A stretch of 64,000 nt of DNA, from NCBI RefSeq assembly GCF_026571515.1, contig NW_026867154.1, positions 310,001-374,000 of the forward strand, given 5' to 3'. Shown here one piece after another: positions 1-63,500 of the stretch. A program made the translations under genes and the position numbers. How positions within the stretch are numbered: the first letter of the stretch is position 1; each line of letters opens with the position of its first letter. The notes beneath the pieces are model-generated. The model did not search any database. It was not told where the DNA came from and saw only the letters and a list, made by a program, of their open reading frames with translations. This DNA comes from Ruditapes philippinarum (taxonomy: Eukaryota).

Positions 1-1953
<1,953 letters not shown>

Positions 1954-5795: not shown

Positions 5796-8676
<2,881 letters not shown>

Positions 8677-16820: not shown

Positions 16821-19800
16821 TCAACTTGATGACATAACTTCGATCAAATCTGAAATCAATGCAATTTATACATTTGATTGTATGAAATATATAACCGTCT
16901 AAACCTTTAGTATTGAGTTTATGAATTACAATGTATGCACTAGCAATTGATATGGTTATGGTTAAATTCAATTGTAGATTGATCCTATCTATAAAATTGT
17001 GTACAATTTGTATTTTAATCACCATATACTGTATGCACCTACCGGCCACATCTTTATAAAATAAACCTGTTATAATTCATTATATCAAACCTTACCTTTA
17101 TAGTCGACGTGCCCATCGACAATATTAATATCAGCATCTTGTAAGATATCATTTGCTTCCTTTGTAGTAAGTCCACCACCCAAATTTGTCATGGCATTTC
17201 TGAGGTTAGCAGCACTTAATATACCATACCCCTCCTTATCGAATACTCTGAAAGCTTCATATATATCCTCATCCCCTTCTTCTTCATTCAGTTTTCTTTT
17301 CATTAAAGTGAGGAATTTTGCCTCACTCACTTTTCCCTTACCTTGTGATTAGAAGCAAAAAAATCATTTAAAGTACTAGAAAAAACAGTACATTTAGTCA
17401 TTTTTGAGTAAAACATACATGAACATGTACATTTTACTACCAAAAGAAATAATATATTTAAAATTAATGTAGAAAAAAATCTAAAAGAGTTTGTACACAA
17501 GTGTATAATTATCTGGACTATATATTTCACTATCATTAACTTAACATATTCTAATGCTAAATAAACTGTTATGTTTGCTCAAACGTAAAATAGAAATAAA
17601 TAGGGTTTACATTATTTTTGCGTAGGGTTTACATTAATTTACTTTAAAAGACATTCCCACCGACAGTCCTTTATAACCTACAGTTTACTTGGATATATTC
17701 AATTGGCGACAAATTGAAATTTCATTTTGCATAAGTAGCTTTTGAAAGACGTGTTCACCGAATTATTGAAAGGGTTGATACGAAAAACAATCCTCTAGGT
17801 GTAGCAATAACGGTTTTGGAATGATGACTTGCAATGAGAGACAACCCTGTTCGGAGTCTTCTTATTGGAGAGGTCATTAGTTGTCTCCACAGTGTTGAGA
17901 ATGATTGCTGGCGGCATCCATTTTTTGCGTATCAAATTGAAGCTAATGCATCTCATTTTAAGCCTTAAAACATTAAAACTAGTCTACTTAAATTGATTTG
18001 CACATGCTCTTCATATTTAATGCCCTTTTTGGGAGAGGAAATGTTTCTTTATACTTTCCAAAACATTAATCGAAAATCTGATCATTGGATTTTACAATCA
18101 TTTATTTTAAAGTTAGTTTGATAACATAACATAAATTGTTCTCTTTCTAGAAAAATATCCCTAATGCGCCAAGAAAATGTTCGTTTCTCCGCCAGATAAT
18201 CTTTTAAAAGTGCAAAACAAACTTTCATTATAATACTTTATTTAATTTTACCCATGAAATATGATGCTTTATTTAATTTTAACCATGAAATATGGTGCTA
18301 TATCAGTCAAATATATTTCATATTTTTTAAAAATAAATATGAAATATAAATATGAAAGTGGGCGGAGTCAAAACTTATTTTAAGGGACTTCTTTCGGCGT
18401 TTTGTTTGAAAAATCTGATAAATACAAAACAACTTTTTCTTGAATTTTGTTTTGAAAACTATCTAGCATGATAGAAAATGGTCTAACTAAGAAAATTAAT
18501 CCGAACACAAATATCTTTTATTCAGTAATTAACGCTGTACAGACGTTTAAAGAGTTGTTTACATGACGTCACAATGTAGCGCCAAACAGCGCGTGCTTAC
18601 GCATAAATTACTGCGCGCTGTACAATCGCAGTCGGTAGCAAGCAAGGGGATTCGTTACCATTTTCTTTGATAATGAAATTAAATAAAAAGGATATTTTTT
18701 TGTTTTTTCGTGAAATATGGTATATATTTTCACTCAACATGATAAAATGCCACATATTTTCACTCGCTGTACCGGCTCGTGAAAATATGTGGCATTTTAT
18801 CATGTTTCGTGAAAATATATTCCATATTTCACGCAAACGAAAAATATCCTCTTAATATCAGTCAAATATATTTCATATTTTTTTAAAAGTAAATATGTAA
18901 TATAAATATGAAAGTGGGCGGAGTCAAAACTCATATTTATTTTCGGGGACTTCTTTCGCCATTTTGTTTGAAAAATCTGATAATTACAAAAAACTTTTTG
19001 TTGAATTTTGTTTTGAAAACTATCTAGAATGATAGAAAATGGTCTAACTAAGAAAATAAATCCGAACACCAATATCTTTAATTCAGTCATTAACGCTGTA
19101 CAGACATTTAAAGAGTTGTTTACGTGACGTCACAATGAAGCGCTAAATATCGCGTGCAAAACAATAATTATATTACTGCGCGTTGTACAATTGCAGTTGC
19201 GTAGCAAGCAAGGGGGTTCGTAACCATATTTCTTTGATAATGAAATTAAATAAAAAGGTTGTTTTTTCGTTTTTCGTGAAATATCGTATATATTTTCACG
19301 AAACATGATAAAATGCCACATATTTTCACTCGCCGTCCCGGCTCGTGAAAATATGTGGCATTTTATCATGTTTCGTGAAAATATATTCCATATTTCACTT
19401 AAACGAAAAAATATCCTCTTAATATTCAATATGAATAATACATTCTATTTTGTTAAAAATTTGTAATTTATAATCAATTATTGTGCCTTTTATGCAAAAA
19501 TATCTCCAAATATTTTCGAATTAAACAAATCTTACACAGCTGCAGAAATACCTCTTGGTTGCTTGTATATCCCAGTTTGCTGAATATTTAAACATGCATT
19601 CTTTTTATGGCAATTAAATGCACTTGCGACAAAATCGATGGCTGAATCATTAATGATTCAACCCGTTGATGTTTTAAAAGTTGAACGTTTTTGAATTAAT
19701 CAAAATTGTTTTTTTTTACTTATGACTTTGAATAAAGTATCGAAGCACTTTATTACAACATCAATCTAGACTATGCAAAGGCACGTCGTGCAAAAGATGA

Positions 19801-21070
19801 CAGTTTTGGCGTTACGTACAATTCAAGCAAAAAGTGACCGGGTGTACCCAATGTTTGATAAACAAACATGTGTAAATCAAATGGTTTGGATATTAAACAG
19901 TTATGACCAATATAATCAACGTTATGCTGAAACGTAAGATGGATGTTTCTTCTTCGTATGAGTATAAGTATGAAAGAAAGAAGTTAAAACCAACTTTTGC
20001 GTTTAAAATAAGATTGATAACTTAAGTTTATCAAACAATGCAGTTTACCATCATCTAACTCTGCAATATCCCCATCAGTTGGTGTCCGTCCAAGACATCT
20101 TATTGCAGTTTCTAGATCATCTCTGTTAATTGTACCAGCATTTTCCACATCAAACACGGAGAATATTTCCTTGATGTCTACGAAAACGAAGATATAAGAA
20201 GTTATTAATCGTATAATTCCAATTTACAAATTTACCGAATACACTCAAAAAACATTCATGTAATAAAAAGAATAGAAACAGTTTGTTGAAGCAACTCCAA
20301 ACATAGATATTAAACAAAAATATTAGTTAGCGTCATTTTATGGCACTAGCAAAAAGGTAGGGGCTAGCGTTACCTGATGCTTTCATTATAAATTGGAACG
20401 ATTCACTTAATTAATATGATGTTGAAGACATTGCTAACCAAATAAGAAGTGCAATTAAATGTATTCATGCAAAGAAATGGATTTACTACATCCGTTTAAT
20501 AAACGAAATTAGTCAATTACTGCGATTTTAATTTTTTTTAAACATGTATATAATGAATAACATATTTATTTTAAAGATTTAGAGTGTAGAGACATGTAAT
20601 TCACCCGAAGAAATACTTTAAACAATCAAGCTGCAACATAGATGTTAGGTATTGAACAACATCATAGACACATTGTAAATATTACAGAAACTTTATACAG
20701 AAATATTGAAATTAAACAAACGTTATAAATAAATTATATAAACTTAACATAGACAAAACAGAAACTAAGACAAGATGAATATAACAAACTGGCTGTATAC
20801 GGTAGATTAAATATATTACATAAACATAAAAATAGATTACATACTTGCTTCGTGTGTACTGTCGACTTGATTTGCCTTAAAGATATAAATGAGCAGTAAA
20901 TAAATTTGCGTTACAATATGTTAAATTGATAATGCTCATCAAATACCGCTTACAATTTTTTAAATTATGTAATCGATACTTAAACGTACATGTTTATCAT
21001 ATTATTGTCAAATTATCAATCATTAAAACTTCGCGAAAAAAGAATAAACGAAATTTTAATGACCTACCAT
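16821..21070 (-). CDS. Highly divergent calmodulin-like protein (CaM-L4), 145 aa. Exons 21068-21070, 20845-20875, 20049-20177, 17096-17341, 16821-16849
   Basis: Same exon phases as CaM (3/31/129/246/29 nt), all GT-AG, open frame. Protein: [145 protein letters not shown]. Confidence 0.85.
18300..19425 (-). mobile_element. Tandem dimer (~555-570 bp unit) of a long-hairpin element in CaM-L4 intron 3
   Basis: The unit starts ATATCAGTCAAATATATTTCATA at 18300 and again at 18855. Each unit ends in a ~160 bp palindrome centred on CTCG..CTCG (18763-18779, 19329-19345). Confidence 0.85.
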
Positions 21071-22326
21071 TACTTCACTCCTTTGTGGTATGCACAAAAC
21101 ATAACTTCCGCCTTCAACAAGGATTTACAAAAGATCGTGTCAAATTTCTAAAACATGCAACGATGAAATTGATATGATATCTATAATAAACTTAACTTGA
21201 ATATCACGCAATAATATTAGTGTCGATCCGTTCAACATATTTGATTTATATGAAGTCAAGACGAAACAAATATTTCAACGGTTATCATGATCTTCAATTC
21301 AATTAAGTATTGAATTCTATTCGATATATAATTAATAAAGATAATACTAGTATTTTATCCCTCTACTATAGTACTTCCTATTTATAATACTTATTCAATA
21401 TGATTAAAATCACGGTAAGTGTCCAGCTTTATTTGTCATCAAATGAAAACGCTGTATTTCTTAAAAAATATGTGTGTTAATTTTCATAGAAGAACAAAAG
21501 TCGATACTTTATCGAATTCTGTTCATAGATGCCTTCTATTTTCATAGTATTTCATATAACCGCGTAGTGACTTAATTAAGTGAATAATAATGAGGCCAAA
21601 TAAAGCTTGATACTAAGTATGTTAGTATTCATCCGTAGTTGTTCATCGCTCCCGTTGAAGTTTCTAATTTCTGTAGAACAGCACAGATGAACACTAACAT
21701 ATACATAGACAGACACTGTTTGAAAAAGGACTTTTTTCAGGAAAACATTTGCAAAGTGTTGAAAACATCTGCGGAAGTTTATAAAATGTTGAATTCTGCT
21801 TGAGCGATATTTGAAACATAAAAAGCTGAGAACACAGACAAACAAGGCATAGCAGCTCCCAACAAAATCCAGGCATACGATTCATGACAAATACTACTTG
21901 TAAAATCGACTATATGACCTCCACACGACATAAATATTATATGTGGCAATAATTTAGAAAACAACAGAATTCCCGAAGAATGCCCAAACGGCAAATTGAA
22001 AATGTTGCTGGCTCAGTTTGATTGAGCCTGTTCATGGACGGTACTGGACGTGCAAGTTACCGTCCACACACCCATAGCACCGGCTTTAGAAAGCGGCGTA
22101 TGGTTGTATCTTGTCTATTCGTATTCAAATTATGGACGATTTTGCTTATTTTGAACAGAAATAAGGAAATGGATGGTAGAAAATAAGATTTTATTAAAGT
22201 AATATAGCAGTGTAACATAAAACAAACATGTATAATGTCATCAAGATGATCTTATTGCAGATTCATTTTGTAGATAATAATGCAAGTGTACAGTTTTTAA
22301 AAACAAAACAAAACTTGTTCTTCAGG

Positions 22327-25033
<2,707 letters not shown>

Positions 25034-25130
25034 CTGAAATAGATAAGGTATATCAGCAATTAACACTTTAGTTTGATTAATTTGTTACTAAATAATTTAT
25101 TTTATAAAGATTTATATTTTTAGACAGAAG

Positions 25131-25351
25131 TTTTGTTTGTTTGTTTCATTTAACGCCTTTTCCCAAAAGTATTTCAGTCATTAAGGCGGGTAGTTTCCAA
25201 ACCATCGTTCCTGGAGAGTTACACCAGTACTAGACTAGCTTCCTCCGTGCTAAACTACCAAAGCATCTCCCGGGGATCGAACCCACGCCAGAGAGGTAAC
25301 TGGATTAGAAGTCATCGACTCTAACCCCTCGACCACGGAGGCGGTCATTTA
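25131..25351 (-). mobile_element. tRNA-derived SINE with TSD
   Basis: Minus-strand head GCCTCCGTGGTCGAGGGGTTAGAGTCG...GGTTCGATCCC and a (CAAA)n tail. TSD AGACAGAAG at 25122-25130 and 25352-25360. Empty site at 30711 in the duplicate. Confidence 0.9.
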
Positions 25352-26521
25352 AGACAGAAGAAAACCGTCGGAAACATCAAAAGGGTTGAAACGTTTCATG
25401 ATTGCACTACGCATTATTGAAAACATAATAATAGAAAATAAATCGTTATCCAATTATGCACGGATCCAAATATTTCAAATATGAGTAAACGCGTAGTTGT
25501 ATTGTAAAATATCAATTTTATAATTGTGCCCATTGTAAAATATCTTTCATCGTTGATTTTTTTGTGGTGTAAAGCAGCATAGTATTGATCAAATTTGAAA
25601 AACATGAATTCTTCTTGTAAGATAAAATGTAATTAGACATAAAATCTTATTTAAGGTAATGGAAAAATAAAGTATATGAAACATATTGCAAAATAATGAA
25701 ATAGCAAAGGAATTTACAATTATTATGTACCATTCGGCGGCCAAAAATATACCATGCCAACAAAAAGCAATATATGAATGTTTAATGTACAAACAATTAC
25801 CAATCTTAGAGTTTCTGTGCTGACGTTTCTATCATAAAAGCCAAATAAATATTTTCGTGTATTTTCACACCTTAAAAACGAATATTATATTCTGGGGAAA
25901 TTGCATAAAGTTTTACTCATAATTTAACAAATCAGCTGTATTTATTGGCGCTAAGATAATATTGCATTAGAAAAGACATGGTTCGTAACAATATACAAAA
26001 AGTATGAGGAATTTGTATGACCCACAAACATTTTATTTTTATGACGATATGTTTGTTTAATTAATGTATGACAAAAATACTTTACTCGTCGCAGTATAAT
26101 AATAGTTTGTATTTCTAAAACAATGAAGACAAAATACAATAAAACATTAAGCGCGATATTTGAAACATAAAAAGATAAACACAGGCAAACAAGGCATAGA
26201 GGTGTTCAGAACGCAGCTTCCAACAAAACCAGGCACACGATTCATGACAAACACTACTTGTAAAATCGACTATAGTATAGTATATACTAGTGTGCTTTTT
26301 AGTGTCGTACGAGCATTTTGAAAAAGTACTTTAACAATACCAGGCAAGGAAATTTACTATGCAATTATATCAAAATAGAGTCCCCAAATCGACAAAATTA
26401 AAAATGTTGCAGGCTCGGATTAATTGTGTCTATTAATGGACGGTACTTGAAAATGTAAGTAACCGTCTACGCCCCCTGTCACCGGCCTAACCTAAATTCA
26501 ACATTTAAACATAAACATGAA

Positions 26522-26715
26522 GGGGAGCGGTGGCCTAATGGTTAAGGTGTCTGCCTCTCAACCCAGAGATCATGGGTTCGAGCCCTACTCGGGTAACGAC
26601 CATGTTTCTCCATATGACACCAGTACTGATTGGTTCCAGGAAGCGGACTCGAAAGTAATTCATATAAGTTGCAAGAATTGTTTCGCAATCGAGCTTAAAT
26701 AAATATGTTTAAACC
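26522..26715 (+). mobile_element. tRNA-derived SINE with 15-bp TSD
   Basis: Head GGGGAGCGGTGGCCTAATGGTTAAGG...GGTTCGAGCCC (A and B boxes). TSD AAACATAAA(C/A)ATGAA at 26507-26521 and 26716-26730. Confidence 0.9.
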
Positions 26716-27388
26716 AAACATAAAAATGAATTATGATGTTTACGGCAGTTATCATAGAACCTTCAATGTGACACTTTCATGCCATTCGATGCAAAGTGGC
26801 GTATAGAAATAGAAAATACCACAAACATGTGCACACAACAGTAAGGTTGCGCTGAACGGTCTCCTAGGATTGAAAGTATAACATCTTTGAATAAATGTAC
26901 TGGGCGACTTTTTGCGACCTCCAAACGGCACAAATAACACTGATGTGGCAATAATATAAAGAACAACAGAATCATTGAAGAACGACAATTTGAATGGCGT
27001 TGTATAGTCCCAAAGTAAACAAGCGTACCTGCTACAGTCTATATAGATCAGTGTTACTGAAAATAACGGATTGTTCACAACTATTTGCTTTATATAATAA
27101 AATTATATTCACGTATATGTTCTTGTCCGTCGTTATAAAGGTATTACTAATTTACATTAATTCGTTTTACAAACATATATGCAATCTTGTCAATTTATGT
27201 CTTGCTTATTTTGAACAGAAATAGGAAAATGGATGATAGAAAATAAGATTTTATTAAAGTAATATAGCAGTGAAACATAAAAAACATGTAAAAATGTCAC
27301 CCAGAAGATTTAATTGGCAGTTTCTTTTTTGTAGAAAATACGGGCAAGTGTCAGTTTTTAAAAAAAAATAAAAAACTTTTTTTAAAGG

Positions 27389-31763
<4,375 letters not shown>

Positions 31764-32689
31764 GATGGATTTAAGTAAATCTCCAAACAGATACAAACGA
31801 AACCTTTCCCTCCACGTTTACACCTATATATGTACCTGTGTGCCCTGAACCATACTGAATTAATCGTACAATGCGCAATGCGACATTATACATGAAGTAT
31901 GTATTATTGTTCACTTCAACAGCTTGTAAATGTAGTGTTAACTTTCTTAAGGCAATCGATATCATTAACATTTCCTTGTTATATGATTAACGTCTAATGT
32001 AATTATGTTATTTATCTACACATTAAGGTGTTTAATTAAAATACAGACTTTCACTTTTTGATTTAGCAATGATCGGTGCAAGTTTAAACAAGCGAGAGTC
32101 AATTCAATTCAATTTAATTTATTTATTTATTCAGCATAATGAGAAAAGCATTGGAATGTATGAGCATTCATTAACAGTTATCATTTAATTGTGTAAAATT
32201 AAGTATGTCTACCAGTATCTGTACACACCGGCTTTTGAAATATCATTAAAAGAAAACTAAACCTAAGTAATATTCATACACATTAAGTTATTCATTAAAC
32301 TCAGTTACCTTCATAAGCCGCGGTGTATTCAAATATTGTTGAAGCTATGCTACTTCAACAAAGTCACTGTATAGTAACAAAAATAATAACTCTCTTTTTT
32401 TCTAATTTGTTCACAAATACATACAAAATAAAGATTATTAAACATAGGATAACATTATAGTTTTTTTATTATTTATGTTTCATATTTTAGGAGTAACCTC
32501 CCTTATAGCAATGTGCACGTCTTTTAAAATACAATGGTGTAAATATGCAGCAAAACATAATGAAGCCTTACATTATGTCTATATCAACAAAGTTTGCTAC
32601 ATCTATGAAATTACTACTAAGAAGTTTGACAAGCACATTTTTTATCAGCCAAGAAGACATATTAAGCTAGTTTACATAACAAGCCAGGT

Positions 32690-34551: not shown

Positions 34552-37021
34552 TTATTTCGTCATCATCATTTTTACAAATTCTGAAAAAGAAATGCATAAA
34601 TTTTGCAAAAATTGATCTAAACTTTATACATATACTGTAAGTGATGCATTACATTTTATTTGCTTTTGTCGTAAAAGAAGTTACATTTACTTATAATGTA
34701 TCAAATTGTATTTAGTTGTTTTAACTGTAACTCTGTGTTAGTTTATTTTTTATAAACAAATTTAAAATTTATACTAAAATGTCTAACGTCGGATGTCAAT
34801 ATTTACGATTTGGGAAATCAGATACAAATGCAAATTGAGCAAACAAGTTCTTGAAAGAATACGAATATGAAGTAAAATAATTATTTTTTATAAACTTTGA
34901 TATCATGATATATATAATTTCCAAAAATAAAGTGATGACCTGTAATGTTTTTTTGTACAAAAAGTTATACACCGCCTTTTTAGTTTTTTTACATAATGAT
35001 AGAATCATACCATCATAATTAACATGACCATCACCATCACCATCTGCTTCTCTAATCATTTCATCAACTTCTTCATCTGTAAGTTTTTCTCCTAGTTTAG
35101 TCATCACATTTCGTAGTTCAGATGCACTTATAAATCCGTTGCCATCTTTATCGAAGACACGGAAAGCGTCGCGAATTTCTTCTTCACTATCTGTATCCCT
35201 CAGTTTACGAGCCATCATATTGAGAAATTCAGCAAAGTCTATCGTTCCATTTCCTAAAATAATTAACTTATATTTTCATTGCAGTTATACTGTAGGTGTT
35301 TTTCAGTTTTGGGTTGAATTGATACGTTTTCTACGTTGTTAAGTACAGTATAATTGACACATGTACAGTTACTATACATAATTTTATGGTCACAAATTTA
35401 GAATTTTATTTTATCAACGACGAATACTGATAATGTGACGAAATAGTCATACAACATTACCATCAGCATCCACTTCATTGACCATTTCTTTTAAATCAGC
35501 TTCTGTGGGATTCTGTCCCAAGGACCTCATTACTGTTCCTAACTCTTTTGTTGTGATTGTGCCATCACCATCCTTGTCAAAAAGACTGAACGCCTCTTTG
35601 AATTCTGTAACAAAGTCAAAACATTACTTTGATACAATTTTACTTCAGTACACATTGAATTTGACAGAACTTTTTGTTAATCTTATATTCTAACACGACT
35701 CGCATTTTTCCCCATTGAACATAGAAGAACCGAAAGTGTGTGTTATTTTAGAAATAATATATCCCAAACAGTGATTTTATCGCTCAATAACATCACTGTT
35801 TGGAGTTCGGATGCGAGGAATTATATCACGAGGGCGTAGCCAATGTGATATAATGATGCGCATCTGAACGACAAACAGTGATGTTATTAAGCGATAAAAT
35901 CACTGATTTGGATATATTATTTCGATTCTAACACGACATTAACAAATAAATGTTGCGGTACTTGATAGTTAAGCAAAATTGCGCCTGATTTGTTTCCGAA
36001 CTTATTTTCAGCGTGTCGGATTTTTAGTAGTTACGTCACGTGTATAATGATTACGTCACATGTCTAAATATAGAACGTCAAACAGTGATTTTATAGCATA
36101 ATAACACACACTTTGGTTCTTCTATGTTCAATAGGGAAAAATGCGCTTGTGTTAGAATTAATTAGACCCCTATAATGTTTTCCCATCTAATTGAAAGATC
36201 GAATTAGTTTGTCATGAAGGAGAAATTGTCATTTCAGACATAGCTCAAGCTTGTAAAGTACAAAGTTCGTCCATTTCAAGTAATAGTTTTATAAAGTTAT
36301 ATAGGTTTGCAATTTCTTTCGTCATATTACTCTTGTAAATAAAAAAGCATAAAGTTATACAAGTAACACTAGTCTATCAATAGTTTGCAAATATAATATA
36401 TAGAATGCGTGTTTTACTTCTAGAATCATGCGCACTATAAAATCAACTGTTTTGATTAAACAAATAATTAATGAAGTGGTCAATGGAAATGCTAACATGG
36501 AAATCGTTGACAAAACAAGAATATTTACCAGCAATTTGATCCCCGGACAACTGATCTACCTGTAAAAAAGGTACGAATGTATTCTATATCAAAATAATTG
36601 TTTTTCAATATATATTCTCGTATATGGATATATTTAATGAAAAAATAATGAATATTTTTATACATAATTTAGAATAAATCAATAAAGATGGATGATCATT
36701 TCAAATGCATCCACATTTATATTAACTTATTAATTTTGACGAGAATTTAATCTAAACATGCTTCAAATGAAAGGACACATACTATTTTATGTAAGTGGGG
36801 GAAATATTCGCGCATGAAATATTAAGATGAATTGTAGATGCTGTTCAGCAAGCAAAATTAAGTGGTATTTGACAGTAAATATGTAGACAATAGATTCCAT
36901 TACCTTATAACTATTTTGTAAAATGGTTTGTATTAGGACATATATATCTATTTAATATATTTATAAATATTATACTAATATCCTTTTTTTCATCGTGCAC
37001 TTTGATGACCTGACTTACCAT
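34552..37021 (-). CDS. Calmodulin-like paralogue CaM7, 149 aa. Exons 37019-37021, 36529-36559, 35461-35604, 35011-35253, 34552-34580
   Basis: GT-AG introns. Protein: [149 protein letters not shown]. Confidence 0.95.
35687..36158. mobile_element. Element with ~60-bp outer inverted repeats and an inner ~170-bp hairpin (CaM7 intron 2)
   Basis: Outer IR ATTCTAACACGACTCGCATTTTTCCC...GTGTGTGTTATT with its reverse complement at 36100-36158. Inner palindrome 35752-35923, apex CGAGGGCGTAGCC. Confidence 0.8.
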
Positions 37022-46400: not shown

Positions 46401-48643
46401 CTTTGAAATCAAGTTTGATGGAAAAAATCAACGCAAAATAGTGATTTTTTGGCAATTTTGAGATGTCCCCTTGTTGCCATGGTAACAGAAAATTTAAGCC
46501 TGATTATGTTGTTGCAAGGGCAATGGTCCAGTCAACATCTGTGCCAAGTTTGATTAGTGTTGAAGCAGTTTTTATCGTATTATAGCAATTTGAACTTATA
46601 ACGTGAGACTTTTCAATGAAAACAGCCATATTTCACAAAATGCTCATGAAGTTATGGGTTAAGACATCTTATAACATTGCTTGTAAAGTGGTCTTAGGAA
46701 ACTATTTTGTCTTAATATATACCAGTTATTAATATATGATACACGCCATACAAATTTGATAGTCAACCTATTTTACCATGACGTTGTCAACGACAGAAGA
46801 ATGAAAAATGTATTGTAATCAATAATCTTTTTATTTCATTTTGGCATTTTAAAGACCTACTACCTTAATTTATTAGTTAAAACTAATCATAGTAATATTA
46901 AAAATGTAAATAAATATAAAACAGGCATATCATGTTGCTCGAGATTTAACCGGTGTGTTCATGGGTAAACAAAGTTAATATAATTTATAGAAGAATGAAT
47001 TACTTCATGTAGATTATAATTGCTGATATACATATGTTGGTATTTTCCTGAATGACGGAAATTTATTTAATCTTTAGACGTTGGAGTTGTACAGTTTGAA
47101 CATGCGCATTGAAGACAAAATAAATGTTGTTAAATTCAGTTGGTAGGACAAAATTTCTATATATTTTTACAATTTACAATTCTAATATTAGGTACAAAAG
47201 TGGCTAAAAGCGTATTAGAGAAGCTTCATATAATTCATCGCTCAACATCAAATGACACATATGATAAAAATGCTTGGCGTTGATTTTGTCTCTATCTACG
47301 AAGAAACTGGTCGCATTTACCAGAAGTGTTTGTTTTGCAACAACAGATGTGCAGAATGTTTTGTCCCGGTGTATCATAGTATTGTGAAAATTCTCTAATA
47401 GAAATCGTTGAAACATTCATTGCGACTAACGTGTTCACTCTTCTGTACAGTATCATTACATTTCGTTGGTTCTTTTGTGTCGATCATATCGGATATAAAT
47501 ACAGCTGCGACAGAAAATATTTTCACTCTTTGTCTGCAAGTGGCATCAGATTCAACAGAAAGGATCAGGTATTATGTATCTTAAAATTTTCCCTAAAAAT
47601 GATGAATGTTTTTTTTCCAGATTGTAAGATGGCCCTGTCCATTTGAGATATTAAGCCTTGTAAAGGTTCAAAGCACATTCACATTGGTGTAAAACGATTT
47701 GCAGCTTAATACTTCACATAGTTTGAGGGTTATATTGTGTCTATCGGAACTTGTTCCGACTTTCACAGAACCTTGGATTATTCATCGCAGCAAGACACGT
47801 AACAGTTGGTTTTACTGGCTACGTACTAATTTCTCCACTCAAAAGTTGCTTTTCTGAAATAAGTACAATTTTCAACTCAAAGCATTTATCGAAAGAGACA
47901 TCATTTCGTATTTAGGTATGACGATATTTATCATTATCTGATAACACGTGGTATTTCTAAATTCAACAATCTGCATGATAAATTCGAGACATTTATAATG
48001 TGTTTGGCTGTATTCTTTTATATCAATGCTTTATTGTATTGCATAATGCCTTGCAAAACTCCCATACTTTATATATTTGACATGCAAATCCAGAAAGGAA
48101 TGAAATGAATTTTAAAGGCTTCAAACAAGATTGACTGTTCAATACACTGAATCTAGTATTTTATACATAATTTAATCAACACTATGAAGTTTTTAAAATT
48201 TTATATGTGTTTTGTTAGTAAATTATAATATAAACAAACTGTAAATGAAATATATGAAACTAATGTACATCTGTGTCTTTAGAAATATATGTAAAGCCTA
48301 CTGTCTTTGTGGTCAATTACTACTCTTCAAAACTCAAAACCGTTAAAATAGCCGATAAACACCGCTGAAAACAGTATTATTTCTTAAATATTCATTCCTT
48401 ATTACATAGAATTGCAGTATGTCGGAAGGGGAAAAACTGTCAGAGGATTGTACTGGCGAGCTTAATAATATTTTTCTCAGACGAGTTTCATAAAATTTTA
48501 TACATTAAATCACAACTCATATCACATTTTGATCACATGACTAATTTTAAAGAAAACAATTCAAACAACACATATATGTAGACGTTTAACATATAACAAG
48601 AATGGATGTAATAAACGTGTGCGCCATATTACATATATTACAC

Positions 48644-48872
48644 ATAAAACCAGGGAAGTCATGAGACAAAACTATATGTATAATATTACTAAACAATTAT
48701 TTCAATGTGATATTTGATATAGATGTAACACTAGCACAGGAGTGGATGTTCAATATATCACTCGCTATATTTAATATAAAACAAGGGAAGTCATGTGATT
48801 AAACTATATTATAATATACCTAAATAAATATTTCAATGTGGTATTTGATATAAATGTAACGCAAGCACACAT
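48644..48872. repeat. Degenerate tandem duplication, ~133 bp unit, upstream of CaM8
   Basis: ATAAAAC(C/A)AGGGAAGTCATG...TTTCAATGTG.TATTTGATATA.ATGTAAC at about 48644 and 48776. Confidence 0.75.
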
Positions 48873-49413
48873 ATTAGAGACAGGTGGAAATGTCTAATTT
48901 TACATACCTACTTATTTGTTATTATGATATGAAAATGATCGAGACCCACAATATGCTCGGCTTAATCGTCTATTGATGTATGATAATGATGCGAGGACGA
49001 AGTATATCAAGTAATTTAATCATATAAATGAAAGCGTTGATGCATTTGACTTCAACTGCGTTTTATAAAACATAATGATATTGCACATATTAAGATTATC
49101 GATGTTAAATGCCCCTTTCAAGTTGTTGAATTCAAAAAATAATTCATAATTTATACATCTCATATTAGCAATCAATATACTCATTGCAAATAGTAAATTT
49201 CAATAAATTGTGTATTTGAATGTTATCTTTTTAGGGTTATGCGACCAGCATATTTAATTTTTAATTTGTCGCAATGCGTCACATATTTCAATAGCATCTA
49301 TCAATTATATTCATTTCAATGTATATTAGATATTAAGTCATAACTGTCAAAAGGAGTAAGATTTTGTGTGTGTGCGTGTGTGTAAAAGTGGAAATCTCTT
49401 AAATATAACAAAA

Positions 49414-51454
<2,041 letters not shown>

Positions 51455-53399
51455 CTATTCAACGTTTTCCTGAATTAGTTATAAATTTCTACAGTCTATA
51501 AAATTTAATATTTAAATGCTGTCCAAAAAGCAAAATGTACAAAACTTTTACAGATAAGCTACAGTTATTTGATTCACATACCGCGGGTACACTGGAATCA
51601 TTATTGTACTAAATCTTTATATGTATGTGATTGGTTGTGACGCTTCATCGTTGTAGTTATAACTAACATATTTAATTTATATACATTTGTATAATATCGT
51701 GTTAAGTGAAAAAAAACATTCGCCTTTCTGTCCAATACATGTATTTCAACAAGAAGGCAATGGTGGCCAAAAATTGTCCACCTGGCCCTAAAATTGGGAA
51801 ACAAGGAAATTCGGATAAATTGTACTAACGGGAAAATGAAAATTTTTAGTAAAAATTTAAGCATACTTTTTAAAAAGGGGTTTTACAAATGCCCTTTAAA
51901 TTTTAAAGGAAATTAGTCAATTACTGTGGCTAAAATATTCAGTTTATAAAGAATTAGCACTTCTATCATATTGAAGTTCTGAGTTGTGGTCAACATTCAC
52001 TCTTCCTAAATACAATATACAAATACAAACTGCATGTGGTTTGATAAAATGTTGTAATAATTGGAAAAATCATTTGAAATAATACATAAAAACCTTCATA
52101 TCACATGGTTGTACTCTATGTGTTGCGTCTCAAGATTAGAATTCCATACACAGTGTCTGTAAAGCAGATGATCCAAATTATACAAAGAAACAAATTCTGT
52201 TTATATAGCGTTGAGTACTTTAAATTTGTTCCATAATGAATTGAATAAGCATAATGAGGTTCAATCCACCAACGATAAGACACGGGGAGATAAGTCACTG
52301 CTGGAAAATGTCTATATATACGGACTTTCAACAAAAATAATGTCGGTTTGCTAATTATAAATATAGAAAAAAACTGCAAATAAAAATACCCTGAAAGTAA
52401 TTTAACATAAAAGTTATATATCAATAATGTTTTTCTTGTCAATTTCCCCCTTTCCCTTTATATATACATACTGCCTTCGTATGAATAAAGTTTATCTATC
52501 TTATCTATATAATTCAATATATGTGACACTTAGAGCGGGGCTAAATTCGACCCAAGGGTGGTGTTTTATATACAACTTCTGTAGAGGACTACAAGGTGAT
52601 GTGCTACAAGCCAAATAACTATGCGATGGGTGTTATAGTTTCAGGGGAGAATGTGTTTATGTAATGTTTACTATATAGGTCTGTGTCACAGGGACAATGT
52701 TTTCATATTGTTTGCTCTGTATACAGTGATTTACAAGTTTATACAGTGATTTAAGAGAAAATTATTTCAAAAGCAGTATAGTAAGCTGCCCAAGTAAGTG
52801 ATAAGTTATTTATCACAGTGAAACTAATAGCATTATCTCATTTTTTCTTGAGAAAACATTTGAAATAAGGCAATCATTTGAGTCAAACTAACCTATATTG
52901 CTGTGTATTGAAATAAATACAATGAAACTTTATCCACAAGTCATATGCATCTGTCATTTCTAAATAGTTCCCTAACTATAACATATTGATATAATTAATG
53001 AATACGTAAATAAGAACCAGGCTGAATGGAATGTAAGTGCTGGAAACTTTATCCATAAAAATTGTAGGAGGAACTACACACATCCACAAACGCTTTAAGA
53101 AATGACCGACTATAAATCAATTATTTGCAACCTTATAACAGGTAAAATTAGAACTTTAGTCCGTTTTGTGGTACTCTTGCAAATTTAACTGAAGAAAGTG
53201 CAAATGAAAGAAAACGAAGCCGTATTGACGGTGTGAACTCAGTTACATAATTAGGATTTCAGGTAATAGTAAAGAGACAAACTATGACAACTGGGCCCAG
53301 CAAGTATTTGTTAGAAATTTCCATGTTATAGATTTACCTGCAGTATATTCTAACAAGCATGAAGCTCGAATTTTAATACTGGTTAAAGAATACCAAACG

Positions 53400-54790
53400 C
53401 TTGGCAAGAGACCAATTGGATGACCTCAGTCTCTTTTAATAAGCGAACATAGATCTTAAGAGAACCACATTTGACCTTATAGAATCATTAGTGTTTGAAA
53501 TTATCTTTTGTCCAATAGGATCGCAGTATTTCATATGAATCGTAAATTCGGTAAGTCGACAAATAGTAAATCGACTGTTTATAGAAATAATTTAAAACAC
53601 TAAACCGGTTAAAATTTTATTAGTACGTATTTACAAAGTTAAATTTGTCACTCGGACTAATCAACTTTAACCTATACATGTTATTAATAAACGTAACTAA
53701 GTATTGAAGACATTGACGAGTTATTCTTACCATTAGTGAACTTGGTGGAAATGGAGATCTCTACCACGCATATGACAAAAAGGCATCATTTTGGACATGA
53801 CATTGTATATCAGTATTGTCTAAAGACGGGAAAGCCGGCAAGATTATGGTGGAAAAACCGCGTCTGTGATTTTAAATGAATTCTCAGACGAGCAATATTG
53901 TATGACAGTGGAAGAGAAGAAAGGCAAATTAAAACAACCGCAACAAAATTGATCAAATCTGATATCTATTAACTGAAAATGACATATAGTAGTATCATCC
54001 AACTCCATTACATTTGTCATTTATTATTAAAAATATATATGATACATTTACTGTCAACCATAAATCCAGATAAAGAAGAATTGAAGTTTAATTTTATTAA
54101 ACAAGCCATGATACGCAGAAGCGCATTGATATCTGTACAAATTGTGGTCTGTGTGGAAATGCACCACCATATCGGCTCAAAGTTCCTCTTTGATTTCTTG
54201 CATGAGCTCGAATGTAGTCGTTCTTTTTCAGAGACTTAGATATTTGACAGAAATGCTGCTGGTACTTTAAATACCATTCCATGTTTTTTTGTCGGAACTT
54301 TTGTACAATGCGTAGCAGATACTATTTATCACAATATCGAAACTATCGATGGACGCATTACTTTTCATAAAACAGGTATCATTGCCTGCATTGCAACTGG
54401 TTCACCTATTAGAACATCAAAAGCGAGAACTGATTTGTAAAAAGATCTGCGGAAGATCCTTAGATCAGAAAAAATTCAATGTCAAATACTTAAGATATCC
54501 AGACTATGAAATTGAAAATCTGATCTATTCTAAAATAACGTTAACGGAAAACACAGTGAAGACAAGAATTCTTTTTCTAAGGCGATATGGTCATGACACA
54601 AGAAGTGATTCTCATGGTCTGAATGCATGCAAGTCTACAACAATACTTGTGACAACCCCGGCACAGCTTAAATTGGCTTTGATCGATATGAGCGTTAGCG
54701 ATGATATATGCATAGATTCAATCTTACAATTTGAACAATCTAAAATGTACAATATCACGCCAGTTATCACCTTTGACTAACATCATTTGT
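53400..54790 (+). mobile_element. Degenerate Academ-like DNA transposase remnant
   Basis: Frame-broken motifs MHHHIGSKFLFDFLHELECSRSFSE, FVQCVADTIYHNIETIDGRITFHKTGII and LIDMSVSDDICIDSILQF...PVITFD* resemble the conserved DN..T..G..TFH and TFDQ blocks of this transposase class. Confidence 0.65.
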
Positions 54791-56257
54791 TTATCAGACA
54801 AATCCAGTAAATTATGTAGATGTACATGTAATACTTGTTTTTAACAACAGCGAAGTTTTAACACATTTTTCTTTACCAGTTTTTACAAAATAACTGTTTT
54901 CAATTTTTTAAATAATAGCAGTAAAATAAATGCCAAATCTGTTTTTAAGCAAGAAACGTATTATTAACACATTTTTATGTACATTTATAAACCTTTGGTA
55001 TATATTTATCGTTTTGTAAAAAGACACAAACCTTTTGCGGTTTTAAGCGTGAAGTTGAGCCGGTGCTAGGAAGTGCGCGGATGGTCATGAAACGAAACTG
55101 TTGCTGCAAAACTGTTCATATTTGCTTGATTGCTTTTTTTAAGTTTTCAATTTTAAACATTTAATTATTTATTACATGTATCACCGAGTCTTTGTGTATT
55201 GGATAAACATTTCAATACATATTTATTAGATGCAAAGCCTGGACGTTAGGAATTTTAGTCTACAAGTGTATTTACAAACAAAGAAATGCCAAAAAACAAC
55301 AATTATGTTCATTAATATGCAAAGTAAAAAAATATGTATTTTGTAGTTGTAATTTTGACAGAAAGATGTCGTCATTTGTAGTTTACACAGGATGGTAATT
55401 TATTTTTACATAACATACATGTATAATAATATTATCATTAGATCTGGTAAAGATATTAAAAATTTGTTTCAAATACATTCTGTACATTATCAAATAATGT
55501 ATAAAAACATCACTGATGACGACTTGCATATATAAAATATGATAAACAAGATCAACAAAGAAAGGCGGCGTTCAATGAACGCAGCCCCCACGTGCACACA
55601 ACCCAGCAACAAGGACCAGCGGCCAAGCAATTAAGTGTAAGGTTAACTTTTTTGTACATTTATGCAGTCTAAAATCATCTACACTGTGGAATGCTTGCTA
55701 ACAAAACCTTTGAGTCGACACAAAAAAAAATCAAAACAAAGTTAGTCTAATTTGAAAATTTTGCATTGTAATTATTAATCAATATAAATACTCACCATCG
55801 TAATAGACAAACTGTTACAAACAAAATGAAAAAATAAAAGTTATACTCTAAAAATTGTATTTAAAAAAAAACGGTGGCAAAAATGCTCAAGTTAAGAATA
55901 AAGCAATGATTCGAACATCCAGATGATCCGGATGTCTTATCCCGATACCGGATGATACCTAATTTACAGACTGACAATGTATATTTAAACTACCATATTA
56001 ACCCGGCAATTAAACTTAGTATGCCCTTCAACCTATTGAAAACAAATGACTGATATATTTCCTGTTTGTTAATACAATGAAAAGAAGGAAAATTATGGGT
56101 TTTATTCATTAGGAATATGATATGTTTATAAACAGTTTGTGTAATACTACAAACAATTTGAAAGGATAAACACGGTTGCGAAATTTCATAACTTATAAAA
56201 GGAATTTGAGGCTTAAGTGTGTAAATACGCGCGTTTTTACTAAAATTTCAACCTAAA

Positions 56258-57894
<1,637 letters not shown>

Positions 57895-59349
57895 CTATTC
57901 AACGATTTCCTATTTCTACAATCTTTATATATCTAAAGCATTGTCGTTGTACTTAAAGTTATTTATGACACTCCGGATGTCAATTAAACAATTTTGAGCT
58001 GTATTACAATGCAGAATTATTTTATATATGTCTGTTAAAAATGTACAAATCTTTCCCTGAAAAAAAATGTTTAAGCACGCTATACAGTACATGTTAATTA
58101 CTGTCACCCATGTACATTTGAGTCAGTATATTATTGAAATTTTGTTTATATTTCTGCTCGTTTTTATGCTACAAGCATAGTTATAGTTAACGCACAGCTT
58201 TATTGTATAATATAATTAAAGATCCTGTAACACATTTTTTCATGGTTTTATTTCATATATATGATGCTCAAATTAAGATTTGTCAATATTGTAAGTTTCA
58301 ATAAGTATTATTTATAAAGCTATTACAGAATTTAACATTTCATGTAAATAAAGGGAGGTAATTAGAAATCTATTTTCTATAAATTCTAAGTTAAACTTTC
58401 CAATAAGAAATGAATGCATATAATTTATTGATTAAATATAATGTGCACAAATATTTGCAGTACACATTTTACATATTCTTCGATGTTTGAAACTTGTTTT
58501 ATTTGCATAATTATATACATATATAATTTTTTTGCAAATGTGGTACACACACAATCACAAAACATACAGGATCATTTTGAATAAACCCAATGTGTTTCTG
58601 GTCTAGTATTTTAACAAGAGGGCAATGATGGCAAAGGAGTAGCTTGCAGAACATTGACACAGGGATAGGATAATTGTACTAACTGTAATACTGCCTTCTT
58701 AGTATTTTAGCACATCTTACATTATAGTAGTGCTACATATCTGTATTATTTTAGCTCTATGACAAGCTAAAAAAGATAGTCATATAAATGTTTACTAGCT
58801 TTAAAATCAATTTAACCTATTCATACAAATAGTTATTATATGAAGTTTTAGGTGACTATCAAAATCTTTGGACTTGTTTTATGTGATACTGTTATATCAT
58901 ATGACCAAAATTAAATTATTCATTTTGGTAAATTTTCAAAAATTTTCAATTTCTTTCTCCATGCACAAAATTCCCCTAAACAATCAGATGAAAGGCAAGT
59001 CTTCCTGCTTTCAGCTTTTGTATCTCTACTGGGTGTAGATGTTCATTACAATGCAAAGCAAAGTGTGTTTATTTTAAAGTGTCATCATCTGTAGTTTACA
59101 CAGGATATTTAATTTATGTAACCTTGTTCTTATTGGTCTGTTAGAAGTCTAGATCTGGTATATAGATATTGACCAGGTTGAATTAAGTGATCCAGTTTGT
59201 TTACAAGAATATCACTAAGAGATTAGAGAATGTCTCTTTCTATTGACTTTCATGTGACTGCATCTTGACCAATTGTAACAAGGTGAAATTGTTACTGACA
59301 TAATGCATACAATGTAGGATATTACAACAAATAATGCAACAGCCAATCA

Positions 59350-59605
59350 TCTGGTTAACTAACTGGTAGAGCATTGCACTGTGAATCAGGAGATCAGGGT
59401 TCGATTCCATCACTTACATTGCGATTCATCATGAAATATTTCCTACGGTCATTTGCACTGTATCTCTGCTATGGTATGTACAGCAGTTGTCAGTTCTGGC
59501 AACAAGAAGGCAGACTGCCCAGGAATGATGCTGAACTTTCCTCTTGTTATTTCAAAGTGGCCTACTGCCTTGATAAAGTTTACTAACAACACCACAACAA
59601 CAAAT
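59350..59605 (+). mobile_element. Degraded tRNA-derived SINE (Deu/Nin-like centre)
   Basis: TAACTAACTGGTAGAGCATTG...GGGTTCGATTCC boxes, centre ATCATGAAATATTTCCTACGGTCATT...GCAGTTGTCAGTT, and a (CAA)n tail. Confidence 0.65.
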
Positions 59606-59670
59606 TGAACAATGCAAAAGCCACAATTCTTTCAATTTCTTTTACAAGAATATATTATCATACATATCAG

Positions 59671-60378
59671 AAACAAGAGCCATGTTAACATGGCCATCCG
59701 CCACCAAATTTGTTTGCTCATTTGAACAATGTATATGTAGCAGAGCAAAATAAAAGAGGACTTTTGGTAATGAAAACTGATTGCTGAAGTGATAACAGAT
59801 TTGAAACCTATGTGAATACTGATGGCTGAAAATAACAACGGACAATTACTGAAAAATAATGCAGGGTAGGTTATCATTCTTGTGTGCTACACTCCTCCTC
59901 ATTGATATCTATCCACTTATGAAGTTTCAAGTTGATACCTCTAACACTTTTTGACATAAGCTCCGGACAAAAAGTAAAAAAAAATAACGAAAGACAATAA
60001 CTGAAAAATTATAAAGGGTAGAGTTACCATTCTTGCGCACAGCATTCCTCCTCAATAAGATAAATCCACCTATGAAGTTTCATGTTGACATCTCAAAGAC
60101 TTTTTGAGCCATGCTCCACTCGGGTGAAAAATTAAGTTTGAAAAATAACAAAGGACAATAACTGAAAAATATGCAGGGTAGTGTTATCATTCTTATGCAC
60201 TGCACTCTTCCTCAATATGATCTATCCACCTATGAAGTTTCAAGTTGATACCTCAAATACTTTTTGAGATATGCTCCCGACAAAAATGTGGGATGGAAGG
60301 ACGGTTGAACGAAAGGAAGGACGGACGGACAGAGACTATTTCTTTATCCCACGCCGCCTTTTCGGCAGAGGATAATAA
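59671..60378 (+). mobile_element. Non-autonomous Helentron-like element with three ~155-bp internal repeats
   Basis: AACAAGAGC start, repeats anchored at GAAGTTTC (59921, 60074, 60234), GGAC/GGAA microsatellite, and a 3' hairpin TATCC...GGATA. Confidence 0.75.
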
Positions 60379-60599
60379 GCACTTACTTAAATGTAATTAT
60401 AAATAATCACTTAGTACTTTTTTCTGCTTTATTCGAACACAGAATTGTAACAAGTAATCAAATATATTCTGTTACATTATCAAACATAATCAAAACATCT
60501 CTTAATTTGATATTTCAGAGAAAGGTTACACATTATACACAACAAATTATTTTCATGTACACATAAAACTATAATCAATTATGTCCGTTTTATTAGGTA

Positions 60600-63500
60600 T
60601 CATCTTGATTTTCCTTTTTTCCTCAATTTCATCATTCTGATAACATAGACATGTAGAGCAGGCCACAGTAATGAGATATTCTTCTTGTACCATTCTCTGA
60701 AATATAGAATAGTTTACAATAAACTCTCTGAACACTAAGCAGTGAGGTTGACTTGCCTATGTTACTAACAGACTAAGATACAGAGGATATTGAATGAGTG
60801 TACTTAGATTAATACTGAATTTATTGAACGAGTTGAATAAAATCATATTATGCGAGCCTCTGGCGAGCATAATATAGTTTTATTCAACGAGTTCAATAAA
60901 TTTAGTATTGAATCTGCACGAATATAATATTCTATTTATCACATATATAAAAATAAAAATGGTTAACAGTTGAAATGAGTCATTTTTCATTAACGCGTCT
61001 ATAGTGTAACGCTAACATTAGCGCGCTTTAACGCTATGTTTGTACATAACGCAAATGACGTCATGTCAAAGTGTTATTACACTAGTGTAATATCATTTTT
61101 ATTAAATGGCATTATTACATTACTGCACCGCAGGTTTTTGTGATAAAAGCTGTTATGTTCAATTACATATTTACAGTCTAACCAGACTCTGCACCGTTGA
61201 ATGCTTGTCAACAAAAACTGATCCATATTAAAAAACAAAGTTAGTCTTTTTTGGAAATTATGAGTGGTATCTGTTAAAGAATAGAAACACTCATTTATCA
61301 AGCGTAGTAGACAAAATATTATGTACAACAAAATGAAACGTGCTACAAGAAGTTGTAATAAGACTTCTTAAGAACATTGAATACATTTATCTAAAACTTT
61401 TATATACAAATGTATTTATAAGGAACAGTTAGGTGCTTGTTGAAGTTAATCTGATATACACTGAAAAACACTTTAAACATAATACTTTTCAAAACTGTTT
61501 TCATAAAAATGGTTTTAAGATATCATTCTCAAAATTTCAACAAATGTTATCTGAAGTAGTTTGCCACATTTGTGCACATGATTTCTATAACATAATTCAT
61601 CCATGTGGAATATGCATGCATTCAACTTTCTCTACATGGAAAGTGATCAGAGTGACATATTTGATTTGATTAAAATACAAGAGGGCCATGATGGCCCTGA
61701 GGTCTCTCACCTGTATAAAGGCACCCGGAGCGGGGCCAGTTTAAACCCCAGGGCTTTTATTTGAACAAACTTGGAAGACACCCATTAGAAGATGTTTCAC
61801 GATGTTAAGTTTTTACTACACACATATAATGAAATGACACCCATAAGAAGATGTTTCATGCTAAACATCTAAGCTCTAGCTATTTGGGTTTTTTCAAAGA
61901 AGATTTTTAAGTTTTTGCTATACAAATATAAGGAAAATCAATAACACCCGGGGCGGGGCCAATTTTGACCCCAGGGCTTTTATTTGAACAAACTTGGTAG
62001 ACAATTACTAGAACATGTTTCATGCTTAATATCTAAACTCTAGCTATTTGGGTTTTTTCAAAGAAGATTTTTAAGTTTTTGCTATACAAATATAAGGAAA
62101 ATCAATAACACCCGGGGCAGGGCCAATTTTGACCCCAGGGCTTTTATTTGAACAAACTTGGTAGACACCAATTAGAACATGTTTCATGCTAAATATCTTA
62201 GCTCTAGCTCTTTGAGTTCTTTAAAAGAAGATTTTTTAAGTTTTTACTATATGCATATAGGGAAAATCAATGACCCCCTGGGGTGGGGCCAATTTTGACC
62301 CCAGGGCTTTTATTTGAACAAACTTTGTAGACACTCATTAGAAGATGTTTCATGCTAAATATCTTAGCTCTAGCTCTTTGGGTTCTTTAAAAGAAGATTT
62401 TTTAAGTTTTTACTATATGCATATAGGGAAAATCAAAGACCCCCTTGGGTGGGGCCAATTTTGACCCCAGGGCTTTTATTTGAACAAACTTGGTAGACAC
62501 TCACTAGAAGATGTTTCATGCTAAATATCTTAGCTCTAGCTCTTTGGGTTCTTTAAAAGAAGATATTTTAAGTTTTTACGATATGCATATAAGGAAAATC
62601 AAAGACCCCCTGGGGCGGAACCAATTTTGACCCCAGAGCTTTTATTTGAACAAACTTGGTAGACACTCATTAGAAGATGTTTCATGCCAAATATCTAAGC
62701 TCTAGCTCTTAGGGTTTTTTAAGAGAAGATATTTAAAGTTTTTTCTTTCGGTTGCCATGGCAACCAGAGTTCTGCATGGAATTAATTCTTTGAACAATTT
62801 TTAAAGGTGACCACCAAAGGAACATTCCTGTGAAGTTTGGATGAAATTGGCTTAGTGGTTTATGAGGAGATGTCATTTAAAGTAAAAGTTTACGGATGGA
62901 CGGACGCCGGACGGACGGACGCCGGACGAAAAGCGATCACAAAAGCTCACCCTGTCACTTTGTGACAGATGAGCTAAAATACTGTTTTACATTAGCAACA
63001 ATGAAAATTATGATAAAGAAACATGGTCTTGGAAATGTAAAAAGATTCCAATGCAATTTTACATGCTCCCTTTGCTATCCAAAAACTTTAATGTTGGCTA
63101 TTATTTTATTAATCTTAAATGAATTGTATTCATACCTTGACACAACAACCTATGGACAAGACCTTCAAGTAGACCAGACTTAACATGACCTTGACTAATA
63201 AATGACCTTGACCTTACAGGCCAAATGTTTGTCTTTTACTTGATTTTTGCTGTAAGTGGCTATAACTTTGTTACTTACGTAAGGATCGTCTTCATTCTTT
63301 CACACAACAATCATTTAGACAAGAATTAATAGACCAAATTAATAATGACCTTTGCTCATCAATGACCTTGATCTTGAAGTTCAAATTAATGAATTCTACT
63401 TGATTTTTGTTATAATTAGCTATAACTTACTTATTTATGACTGGAATATTTAATATTTGAACATTACAATTCTTGGATGACAACTTAAAGATGACTAATA

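Follow-up and report, generated by a model that had tools for sequence, protein, structure and literature searches.

A 64,000-nucleotide (nt) stretch of the Ruditapes philippinarum genome (NCBI RefSeq assembly GCF_026571515.1, contig NW_026867154.1, positions 310,001 to 374,000 of the forward strand; hereafter the window, with position 1 its first letter) carries six long hairpins built around one kind of apex, in which a CGAG faces a second CGAG across a short stem and loop. The six hairpins belong to five high-copy, gene-less families, A to E, each present in hundreds of copies, and these families are almost certainly non-autonomous members of CryptonA, a known group of transposons. Within that group, the design of the ends and the footprint left by insertion were not found described: the hairpin lies at one end only, it is followed by a complement of the element's own joined ends, and the element's six-nucleotide spacer stays on one side of the insertion. 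These features suggest that the elements probably move as folded single-stranded circles of which only the CGAG strand is exchanged. Both the end design and the footprint render an open mechanistic question testable.

The window contains six CGAG-N7..11-CGAG sites, compared with a mean of 0.36 in 200 first-order Markov simulations of it, and four of the six have complementary outer arms, for which the simulated mean is 0.0. All apices named in the original prediction are present at their places, the decayed one at 35829 being restored by the family E consensus. The elements, their apices and the internal complement of each 3' end (designated b') lie as follows.

18238-19421, minus strand: outer copy of family D, ~600 bp, assigned to non-autonomous CryptonA; body at 18855-19421, last 31 bp at 18238-18268.
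18269-18854, minus strand: inner copy of family D, complete, no target duplication.
19329-19345, minus strand: apex of the outer D copy, CGAG-CCG-GGA-CGG-CGAG.
18763-18779, minus strand: apex of the inner D copy, CGAG-CCG-GTA-CAG-CGAG, one broken stem pair.
19243-19253, minus strand: b' of the outer D copy (18676-18686 in the inner copy).
23835-24116, plus strand: family A element (283 bp in consensus) within a calmodulin-like gene's intron; the empty site is seen in the gene's paralogous copy.
23901-23916, plus strand: apex of A, CGAG-CC-GTCA-GG-CGAG (consensus loop GTTA).
23981-23989, plus strand: b' of A.
29163-29774, plus strand: family B element, consensus ~636-639 bp, with a clean empty site in the paralogue near 23800; this copy lacks ~29 nt of the right arm relative to other B copies.
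29228-29243, plus strand: apex of B, CGAG-CC-GTTA-GG-CGAG.
29281-29291, plus strand: b' of B.
35687-35746, minus strand: 3' end piece of an older, opposite family E copy, which was the target of the next element.
35747-36157, plus strand: family E element, 413 bp in consensus, its ends uncertain by one T.
35829-35845, plus strand: decayed apex of E, CGAG-GGC-GTA-GCC and then departing from the consensus CGAG-GGC-GTA-GCC-CGAG.
35925-35934, plus strand: b' of E.
60780-61146, plus strand: family C element, consensus 361 bp, with a 5' hairpin like that of the autonomous family F2 and a 3' end like that of the autonomous family F1.
60853-60867, plus strand: apex of C, CGAG-CC-TCT-GG-CGAG; the arms form a second CGAG/CGAG loop lower down in the same hairpin.
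60935-60943, plus strand: b' of C.

The hairpins at 18763 and 19329 thus represent a single family, D, whose outer copy was split by the inner one at an ATAT^N6-ATAT target within the outer copy's 3' end. The description of the elements as five unrelated ones is correct as regards sequence but not as regards kinship, as all belong to one transposon group. Apart from the apex itself, the arms show no DNA similarity between families that is clearly above that of shuffled sequences (score 38 versus a shuffle maximum of 26 for A-B; 30 and 34 versus 29, a marginal excess, for C-D1 and C-D2), and derivation of all five from one recent family is ruled out by this lack of similarity. The start sequence given earlier required correction, the true starts being ATAGAGG in C and TAAGAGG in D.

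The link to a recombinase emerged from a search of the genome for DUF3504, which returned 149 matches; 40 of these, taken with ~10 kb of DNA each, fall into 17 clusters, 11 of them multi-copy. In eight of the 11 multi-copy clusters (8 of all 17), designated F1-F8, the sequence that the copies have in common bears the apex hairpin at one end, with insertions between hairpin and gene in F8. Per 100 kb, apices number 6.8 around DUF3504; the figure is 1.2 for random DNA (600 kb) and 0 near Helitron genes (300 kb). The family C element of the window is identical to the hairpin end of F2 in 140 of 170 aligned columns and to the far end of F1 in 22 of 33, so for this family the search for autonomous copies with the same ends succeeded; A, B, D, and E share only their layout with the autonomous elements. 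The latter are 2.2-3.4 kb long. A frame of 488 amino acids in F2 matches Pfam DUF3504 (E 1.9e-28) and Phage_integrase and contains the R-H-R-H-Y motifs, FGLR, NHSAR, and GH..Y motifs are found in F1, F2, and F5, and a Pfam scan of the eight frames returned DUF3504, QRICH1, and Phage_integrase only. In a fold search, a structure model of the F2 protein (mean predicted local distance difference test score, pLDDT, 68) came nearest to QRICH1, Cre, Tn1549 Int, and IntI, with IntI ranking 33rd, below Cre. Homologues named KIAA1958-like or ZMYM-like are found in bivalves, corals, and other animals, the closest named ones in bivalves, and no relative was found in viral contigs. The hairpin is downstream of the gene and its apex strand antisense in F1, F2, F4, and F5, upstream and sense in F3, F6, F7, and F8, an orientation that follows the protein tree of this genome's 17 clusters. 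A second hairpin of 73 nt, repeating part of the main arm, occurs near the far end of F7, ~550 nt past the DUF3504 match (L121, L125, L127, L129). Some autonomous copies have lost the hairpin tip (L093, L109, L107, L125, L084), as expected of a hairpin that would extrude and be skipped in replication.

These data also bear on the choice of mobilising enzyme, which had been placed between a Crypton-type tyrosine recombinase and an HUH nuclease. The former is borne out by the DUF3504 elements that share the apex at one end and by the match of C to F2, whereas the latter (a Helitron/Helentron, Replitron, or IS200-like enzyme reading the hairpin, with the DUF3504 link due to incidental insertion) is very improbable. 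Fixed ends, insertion without target duplication, and a hairpin specific to one strand are HUH traits as well (PMC8969392), the genome holds 94 Helitron_like_N matches, and the elements often insert in one another. However, no apex was present in 30 narrow and 20 wide Helitron loci (300 kb; Helitron ends not individually mapped, Replitron and Y1 proteins not searched for), the hairpin of each DUF3504 family is its own end and pairs with that family's far end, and the target has inverted halves on either side of 6 nt. Among 30 Phage_integrase loci, the apex was seen only at L069, which is itself a DUF3504 hit, and at L087, which holds an inserted family-B copy, the ±1.5 kb flanks used being short enough to miss DIRS-type ends.

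Assignment to CryptonA also accords with what the elements carry and lack. There are no terminal inverted or direct repeats and mostly no target duplication, as in CryptonA; the 4-6-bp direct repeats at both termini that mark CryptonF and CryptonS are missing, as are the reverse transcriptase and inverted terminal repeats of DIRS elements and the IntI-family integrase, attI site, and promoter platform of integrons, the enzyme here being of DUF3504 type. By analogy, the elements may work like an integron, but they are not integrons. Such hairpins also occur outside this genome, at 12 of 80 DUF3504 loci on metagenome contigs, often with several G.A blocks; the locus scans used a 5-sequence alignment, a 14-sequence one being too diverse, and among nine control mismatch patterns eight gave 0 and the ninth, also of G.A type, gave 4. 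Nine loci with a downstream hairpin were examined, six of them with enough upstream DNA, and five of the six carry a 10-21-nt complement 211-308 nt before the gene match, a figure that has no chance control. Two or three stacked G.A blocks, instead of a single one, stand at the apex in L340, L346, L353, L360, L362, L386, and L410.

All aligned families, gene-less and autonomous, are laid out in the order A-apex-A'-b'-body-b, where A and A' are the hairpin arms and b is the 3' end of the element. When the ends are joined, b next to A, the hairpin extends across the junction, because A'b' is the complement of the joined ends; past the junction, in the 6-nt spacer, the internal copy is mismatched and shorter, by 1 nt in families A and B and by 2 nt in the others. 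The complementarity to the far end reported earlier is real in A, B, C, and E, and it exists in D as well, where it had been missed. Perfect b:b' runs measure 9 nt in A, 10 in C, 11 in D, 12 in E, 13 in B, 10 in F2, 12 in F3, 13 in F4, 14 in F7, and 22 in F8, so that a script recovered them in 10 of 11 aligned families; in F1, where the script alignment was wrong, a run of 13 was read by eye, and for F5 and F6 no far end was located. The pairing spans 0.2-3 kb and has a different sequence in each family. In every family aligned, the stem predicted from sequence at the junction contains a mismatched spacer with 1-2 extra nt, and the recombination site is likely this hairpin base as completed by the joined ends rather than the apex, which lies 50-89 nt from the element's first base, and so from the junction.

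Apex conservation was assessed across the 1.41-Gb, AT-rich genome, where exact matches number 812 for the A/B apex pattern and 1005 for the E apex; the reversed pattern, used as a control, gave 0 each time. Of 127 full-length copies, 115 retain both CGAG (A 4/7, B 20/21, C 33/34, D 30/33, E 28/32), and in none of the 127 was the apex changed to perfect pairing. Copies of C, D, and E were taken as best-scoring DNA-search matches, whereas most of those of A and B were found by the apex pattern, so that the retention is unbiased for C, D, and E only (91/99). A strict scan for hairpin tips, free of any motif, gave 14 hits in 600 kb of random DNA: five GA/GA at three sites, eight from one or two tandem repeats, and one AA/AA variant. 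A wider scan of all collected loci yielded 135 unique GAG...CGA hairpins in 20 clusters, 15 of which have at least two further pairs in the inner stem, with many different stem sequences. Complementarity close to the tip is common to all fold-backs, so what counts is not the stem but the retention of the G.A/A.G mismatch; ~17 of the 20 clusters keep it, a figure that carries the bias of a search requiring GAG...CGA. The arms contain 12 more two-base loops, six of them GA/GA, all on the apex strand. One hairpin resembling those of families A and B (L259:626) bears CAAG opposite CAAG in place of CGAG.

The insertion sites offer an indirect view of strand use. The target opens with ATAT or TTAT, continues with six variable bases, and closes with the motif inverted, and the elements insert at its left edge, mostly without duplication, their own spacer staying 5'. 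Inverted matching between the flanks of 105 copies peaks at a 6-nt spacer (0.61 versus 0.29-0.45). About 17 of 20 independent empty sites join cleanly, including the B paralogue and the nested D pair; same-array matches, copies mis-anchored on the internal complement, and one-flank matches were dropped from this count, and four E empty sites at one position inside E possibly reflect one ancestral event. The element's own 6-nt spacer was present at 127 of 128 5' ends of the CGAG strand. At 3' ends it was present at 6 of 179 (four tandem junctions and two loose AT-rich matches in E), the 3' pattern for family C being loose in this footprint count. Genome-wide, the own spacer comes after 9 of 749 family-B 3' ends, all nine at exact head-to-tail junctions, and none of the 749 carries the own spacer alone; nor does any of 808 family-C 3' ends run into the spacer and then a non-element base. 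The first target base is A in 27 of 28 cases in B, 15 of 20 in A, and 17 of 22 in D, matching the internal copy and not the own spacer; F7 and F8 show no such bias. Elements are often inserted in each other's arms and bodies (L003, L013, L016, L017, L027, L096, L195, L203) because these contain ATAT-N6-ATAT-like sites, and in L096 a gene-less copy abuts an autonomous one at an exact junction.

Given the geometry of tyrosine recombination (PMC2727003), exchange of both strands between unlike spacers, followed by replication, would be expected to leave the element's spacer at the 3' end in about half of the copies. Only the 5'-spacer class was found, which indirectly suggests that the exchanged strand is always the CGAG strand, and the analogy with the attC sites of integrons drawn in the original prediction gains support from these footprints. 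The same counts weaken the classical Crypton model, namely, double-stranded excision and two-strand exchange as proposed for fungal Cryptons, with the hairpin either left over from an ancient fold-back duplication or acting as a signal in transcription or RNA. Since palindromes homogenise their own arms, complementary arms are not in themselves proof of a function. The classical scheme is, moreover, the published working model (PMC3212892, PMC13465315), yet it appears improbable for these elements: it needs 4-6-bp direct repeats at both ends, while on average only 1.4-2.9 of 6 positions agree between the 3'-flank 6-mer and the element spacer, and it is at odds with b:b' pairing over such distances in a sequence that differs per family. 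An RNA signal fits poorly too, as the apex strand, antisense in four autonomous families and sense in the other four, does not follow the mRNA.

Under the single-strand reading, the CGAG strand would fold when exposed, e.g. at a replication fork, and b' would splint b beside arm A. The recombinase would cut this strand at both ends and close the circle, so that the junction would form a folded attC-like site with an unpaired spacer, and a single strand exchange with a double-stranded target, followed by resolution through replication, would give the insertion. CGAG opposite CGAG forms tandem sheared G:A pairs, as shown by nuclear magnetic resonance (PMC10085684), and such a block with its short loop might make the fold of one strand more stable, or serve as a protein-binding site, away from the cut. 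Direct reading of the apex by the recombinase is rather doubtful; the apex is far from the cut and its distance variable, so that a role in nucleating or stabilising the fold is more likely than read-out by the cleaving enzyme.

A closer competitor, although one we also regard as unlikely, is that one strand of a CryptonA element gives rise to the circle but the element then moves in double-stranded circular form (copy-out, like the strand-biased SE elements of bacteria), the internal inverted copy being an accessory recombinase site or second-strand origin and the hairpin serving replication of the circle. In family B, the junction and the internal copy (AATAA-N6-TTATT and AATAA-N5-TTATT) both resemble duplex recombinase sites, and exact head-to-tail dimers exist. 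The CRE-like TGACGT/ACGTCA motif noted earlier in the element bodies was confirmed in 124 of 127 full-length copies and also in 7 of 10 autonomous ones (random 400-bp bins: 133 of 1499), suggestive of a duplex-binding host factor. SE elements, furthermore, circularise one strand without a hairpin being described in the accessible text (PMC9345347). However, duplex integration into unlike spacers should leave both arrangements, of which one is seen; in SEs the 6 bp tend to shift to the other end on integration (PMC9345347); and a G.A-opposite-G.A mismatch would be meaningless in a duplex, yet most hairpin clusters keep it.

Several observations weigh against the reading as CryptonA elements that move as folded single strands. 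Predicted DNA folding energies (ViennaRNA) favour the top strand by 0.9-1.8 kcal/mol in B, C, and E but the bottom strand by 4.9 in A, and so show no consistent strand preference; the 50-89-nt variation in apex-junction distance argues against read-out by a cleaving dimer; and the terminal structure of attC has no role in strand choice (PMC2727003). The apex varies as well: the GNA or GNNA loop proposed earlier holds for the other listed apices but gives way to TCT in family C and in the autonomous F1 and F2, and one F1 copy (L039/L099) has a fully paired apex. Three of the ~20 independent empty sites (L138, L209, L218) lack 5-11 nt that the filled copy has at its junction, and biased heteroduplex repair could also give one-sided footprints. 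As for the recombinase, three multi-copy and six single-copy DUF3504 clusters show no apex at a defined end, 68 of the 80 metagenome loci (many of them short) have no hairpin, and the analysis turned up no autonomous element whose arms match those of A, B, D, or E. In F7 and F8, K replaces the second catalytic R, and for F3, F4, and F6 the frames examined did not include the C-terminal motifs.

The CryptonA elements of Kojima and Jurka (2011) resemble those described here in being ~2 kb long, coding for one DUF3504 tyrosine recombinase, having abundant short non-autonomous families, and lacking terminal direct or inverted repeats (PMC3212892). In the available text of that work the termini are given as not determined, and the words hairpin and palindrome are absent; the one-sided subterminal hairpin, the CGAG/CGAG apex, the junction complement, and the inverted N6 target set the present elements apart. 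Tyrosine-recombinase sites usually consist of inverted repeats flanking 6 nt (PMC3212892, PMC2727003). Eulor5/Eulor6 and the salmon repeats Crypton-N1_SSa plus CryptonA-N2_SSa (Kojima 2018, PMC5753468) are short non-autonomous CryptonA repeats recognised by their termini, as here. CryptonF, Starships, and Glomhoppers (PMC13465315; 10.64898/2026.09.21.753150) are likewise eukaryotic tyrosine-recombinase DNA transposons with a proposed or demonstrated circle, but CryptonF and Starships use short direct repeats that match the target, for which there is no equivalent here. DIRS retrotransposons (PMC8969392) have an internal complement of both termini, a tyrosine recombinase, and no target duplication; in contrast, the present 2-3 kb elements have no reverse transcriptase, and their complement adjoins the 5' end and extends into a 50-90-bp hairpin.

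Among bacterial systems, the attC x attI reaction of integrons (Bouvier et al. 2009, PMC2727003) offers several parallels: a tyrosine recombinase, hairpins of variable sequence, an unpaired spacer, and head-to-tail stacking, with the use of one strand a probable further one. The clam elements differ in that the folded site would form across joined ends with an internal splint, each autonomous element has its own enzyme, the target is loose and AT-rich, and single-strand use is a deduction here. Vibrio SE elements also have a tyrosine recombinase and a circle whose 6-bp spacer comes from one strand, but they carry four core genes, a spacer that tends to move to the other end, and no hairpin that the accessible text mentions; CTX phage integration is named there as a similar case (PMC9345347).

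Published accounts, as far as their accessible text goes, leave animal Cryptons without defined ends and borrow the double-stranded-circle model from fungi; the 2026 Glomhopper paper and a 2022 curation guide speak of short direct repeats only, and the word Crypton is absent from a bivalve transposon survey. No description of the apex or the junction complement in Cryptons was found in the literature, although subscription papers, Repbase, Dfam, figures, and bioRxiv supplements may hold one. Eulor repeats are noted as hairpins in Repbase/Dfam, and the hairpin itself may thus be on record. To our knowledge, how animal Cryptons move has not been shown so far. With single-base definition of ends, target, and candidate substrate for five gene-less families, and a shared layout in eight recombinase-coding ones, the mechanism becomes testable with short oligonucleotides and one protein. 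Structure-guided tyrosine recombination is known to us only from bacteria and phages; if the single-strand reading is true, it operates in animal nuclei too and might furnish a compact tool for integrating single-stranded DNA. It is enticing to go further, tentatively and with the balance tipping slightly against it, and to view animal CryptonA as a eukaryotic integron-like system whose recombinase recognises the structure and not the sequence of a folded single strand, exchanges that strand only, and in this way cross-mobilises and stacks many cassettes unrelated in sequence. Tandem sheared G.A pairs would then be a strand-selection code, and the reaction the ancestral activity behind the domesticated ZMYM, QRICH1, and KCTD1 domains. 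In practical terms, apex and junction complement form a simple signature for classifying many unnamed hairpin repeats.

The elements lie among at least seven copies of a calmodulin-like (EF-hand) gene, found on both strands of the window (1-900, 6450-7950, 11500, 14100-15050, 22650-25050, 28050-30650, 34950-35650, and 50250-57800). Two copies form a recent 5.4-kb duplication, a source of empty sites, and the one near 800 appears degenerate. For the site at 60780, read alignment in search of an empty allele barely covered the unique flanks. Just past element A, at 24114-24235, a short poly-T insertion between ~13-bp direct repeats resembles, by eye, a retroposed piece. A fold-back at 27729-28057 has 150-nt arms and an inner palindrome but no CGAG apex, and hairpins similar to it occur in several DUF3504 loci, e.g. 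L091, L101, L103, and L108. The window also contains an element whose inverted ends measure 164 nt and which includes inverted arrays built of a 22-bp unit (30864-31416), a high-copy repeat with ~155-bp units (59750-60350), and an array of a 166-bp unit (61722-62735).

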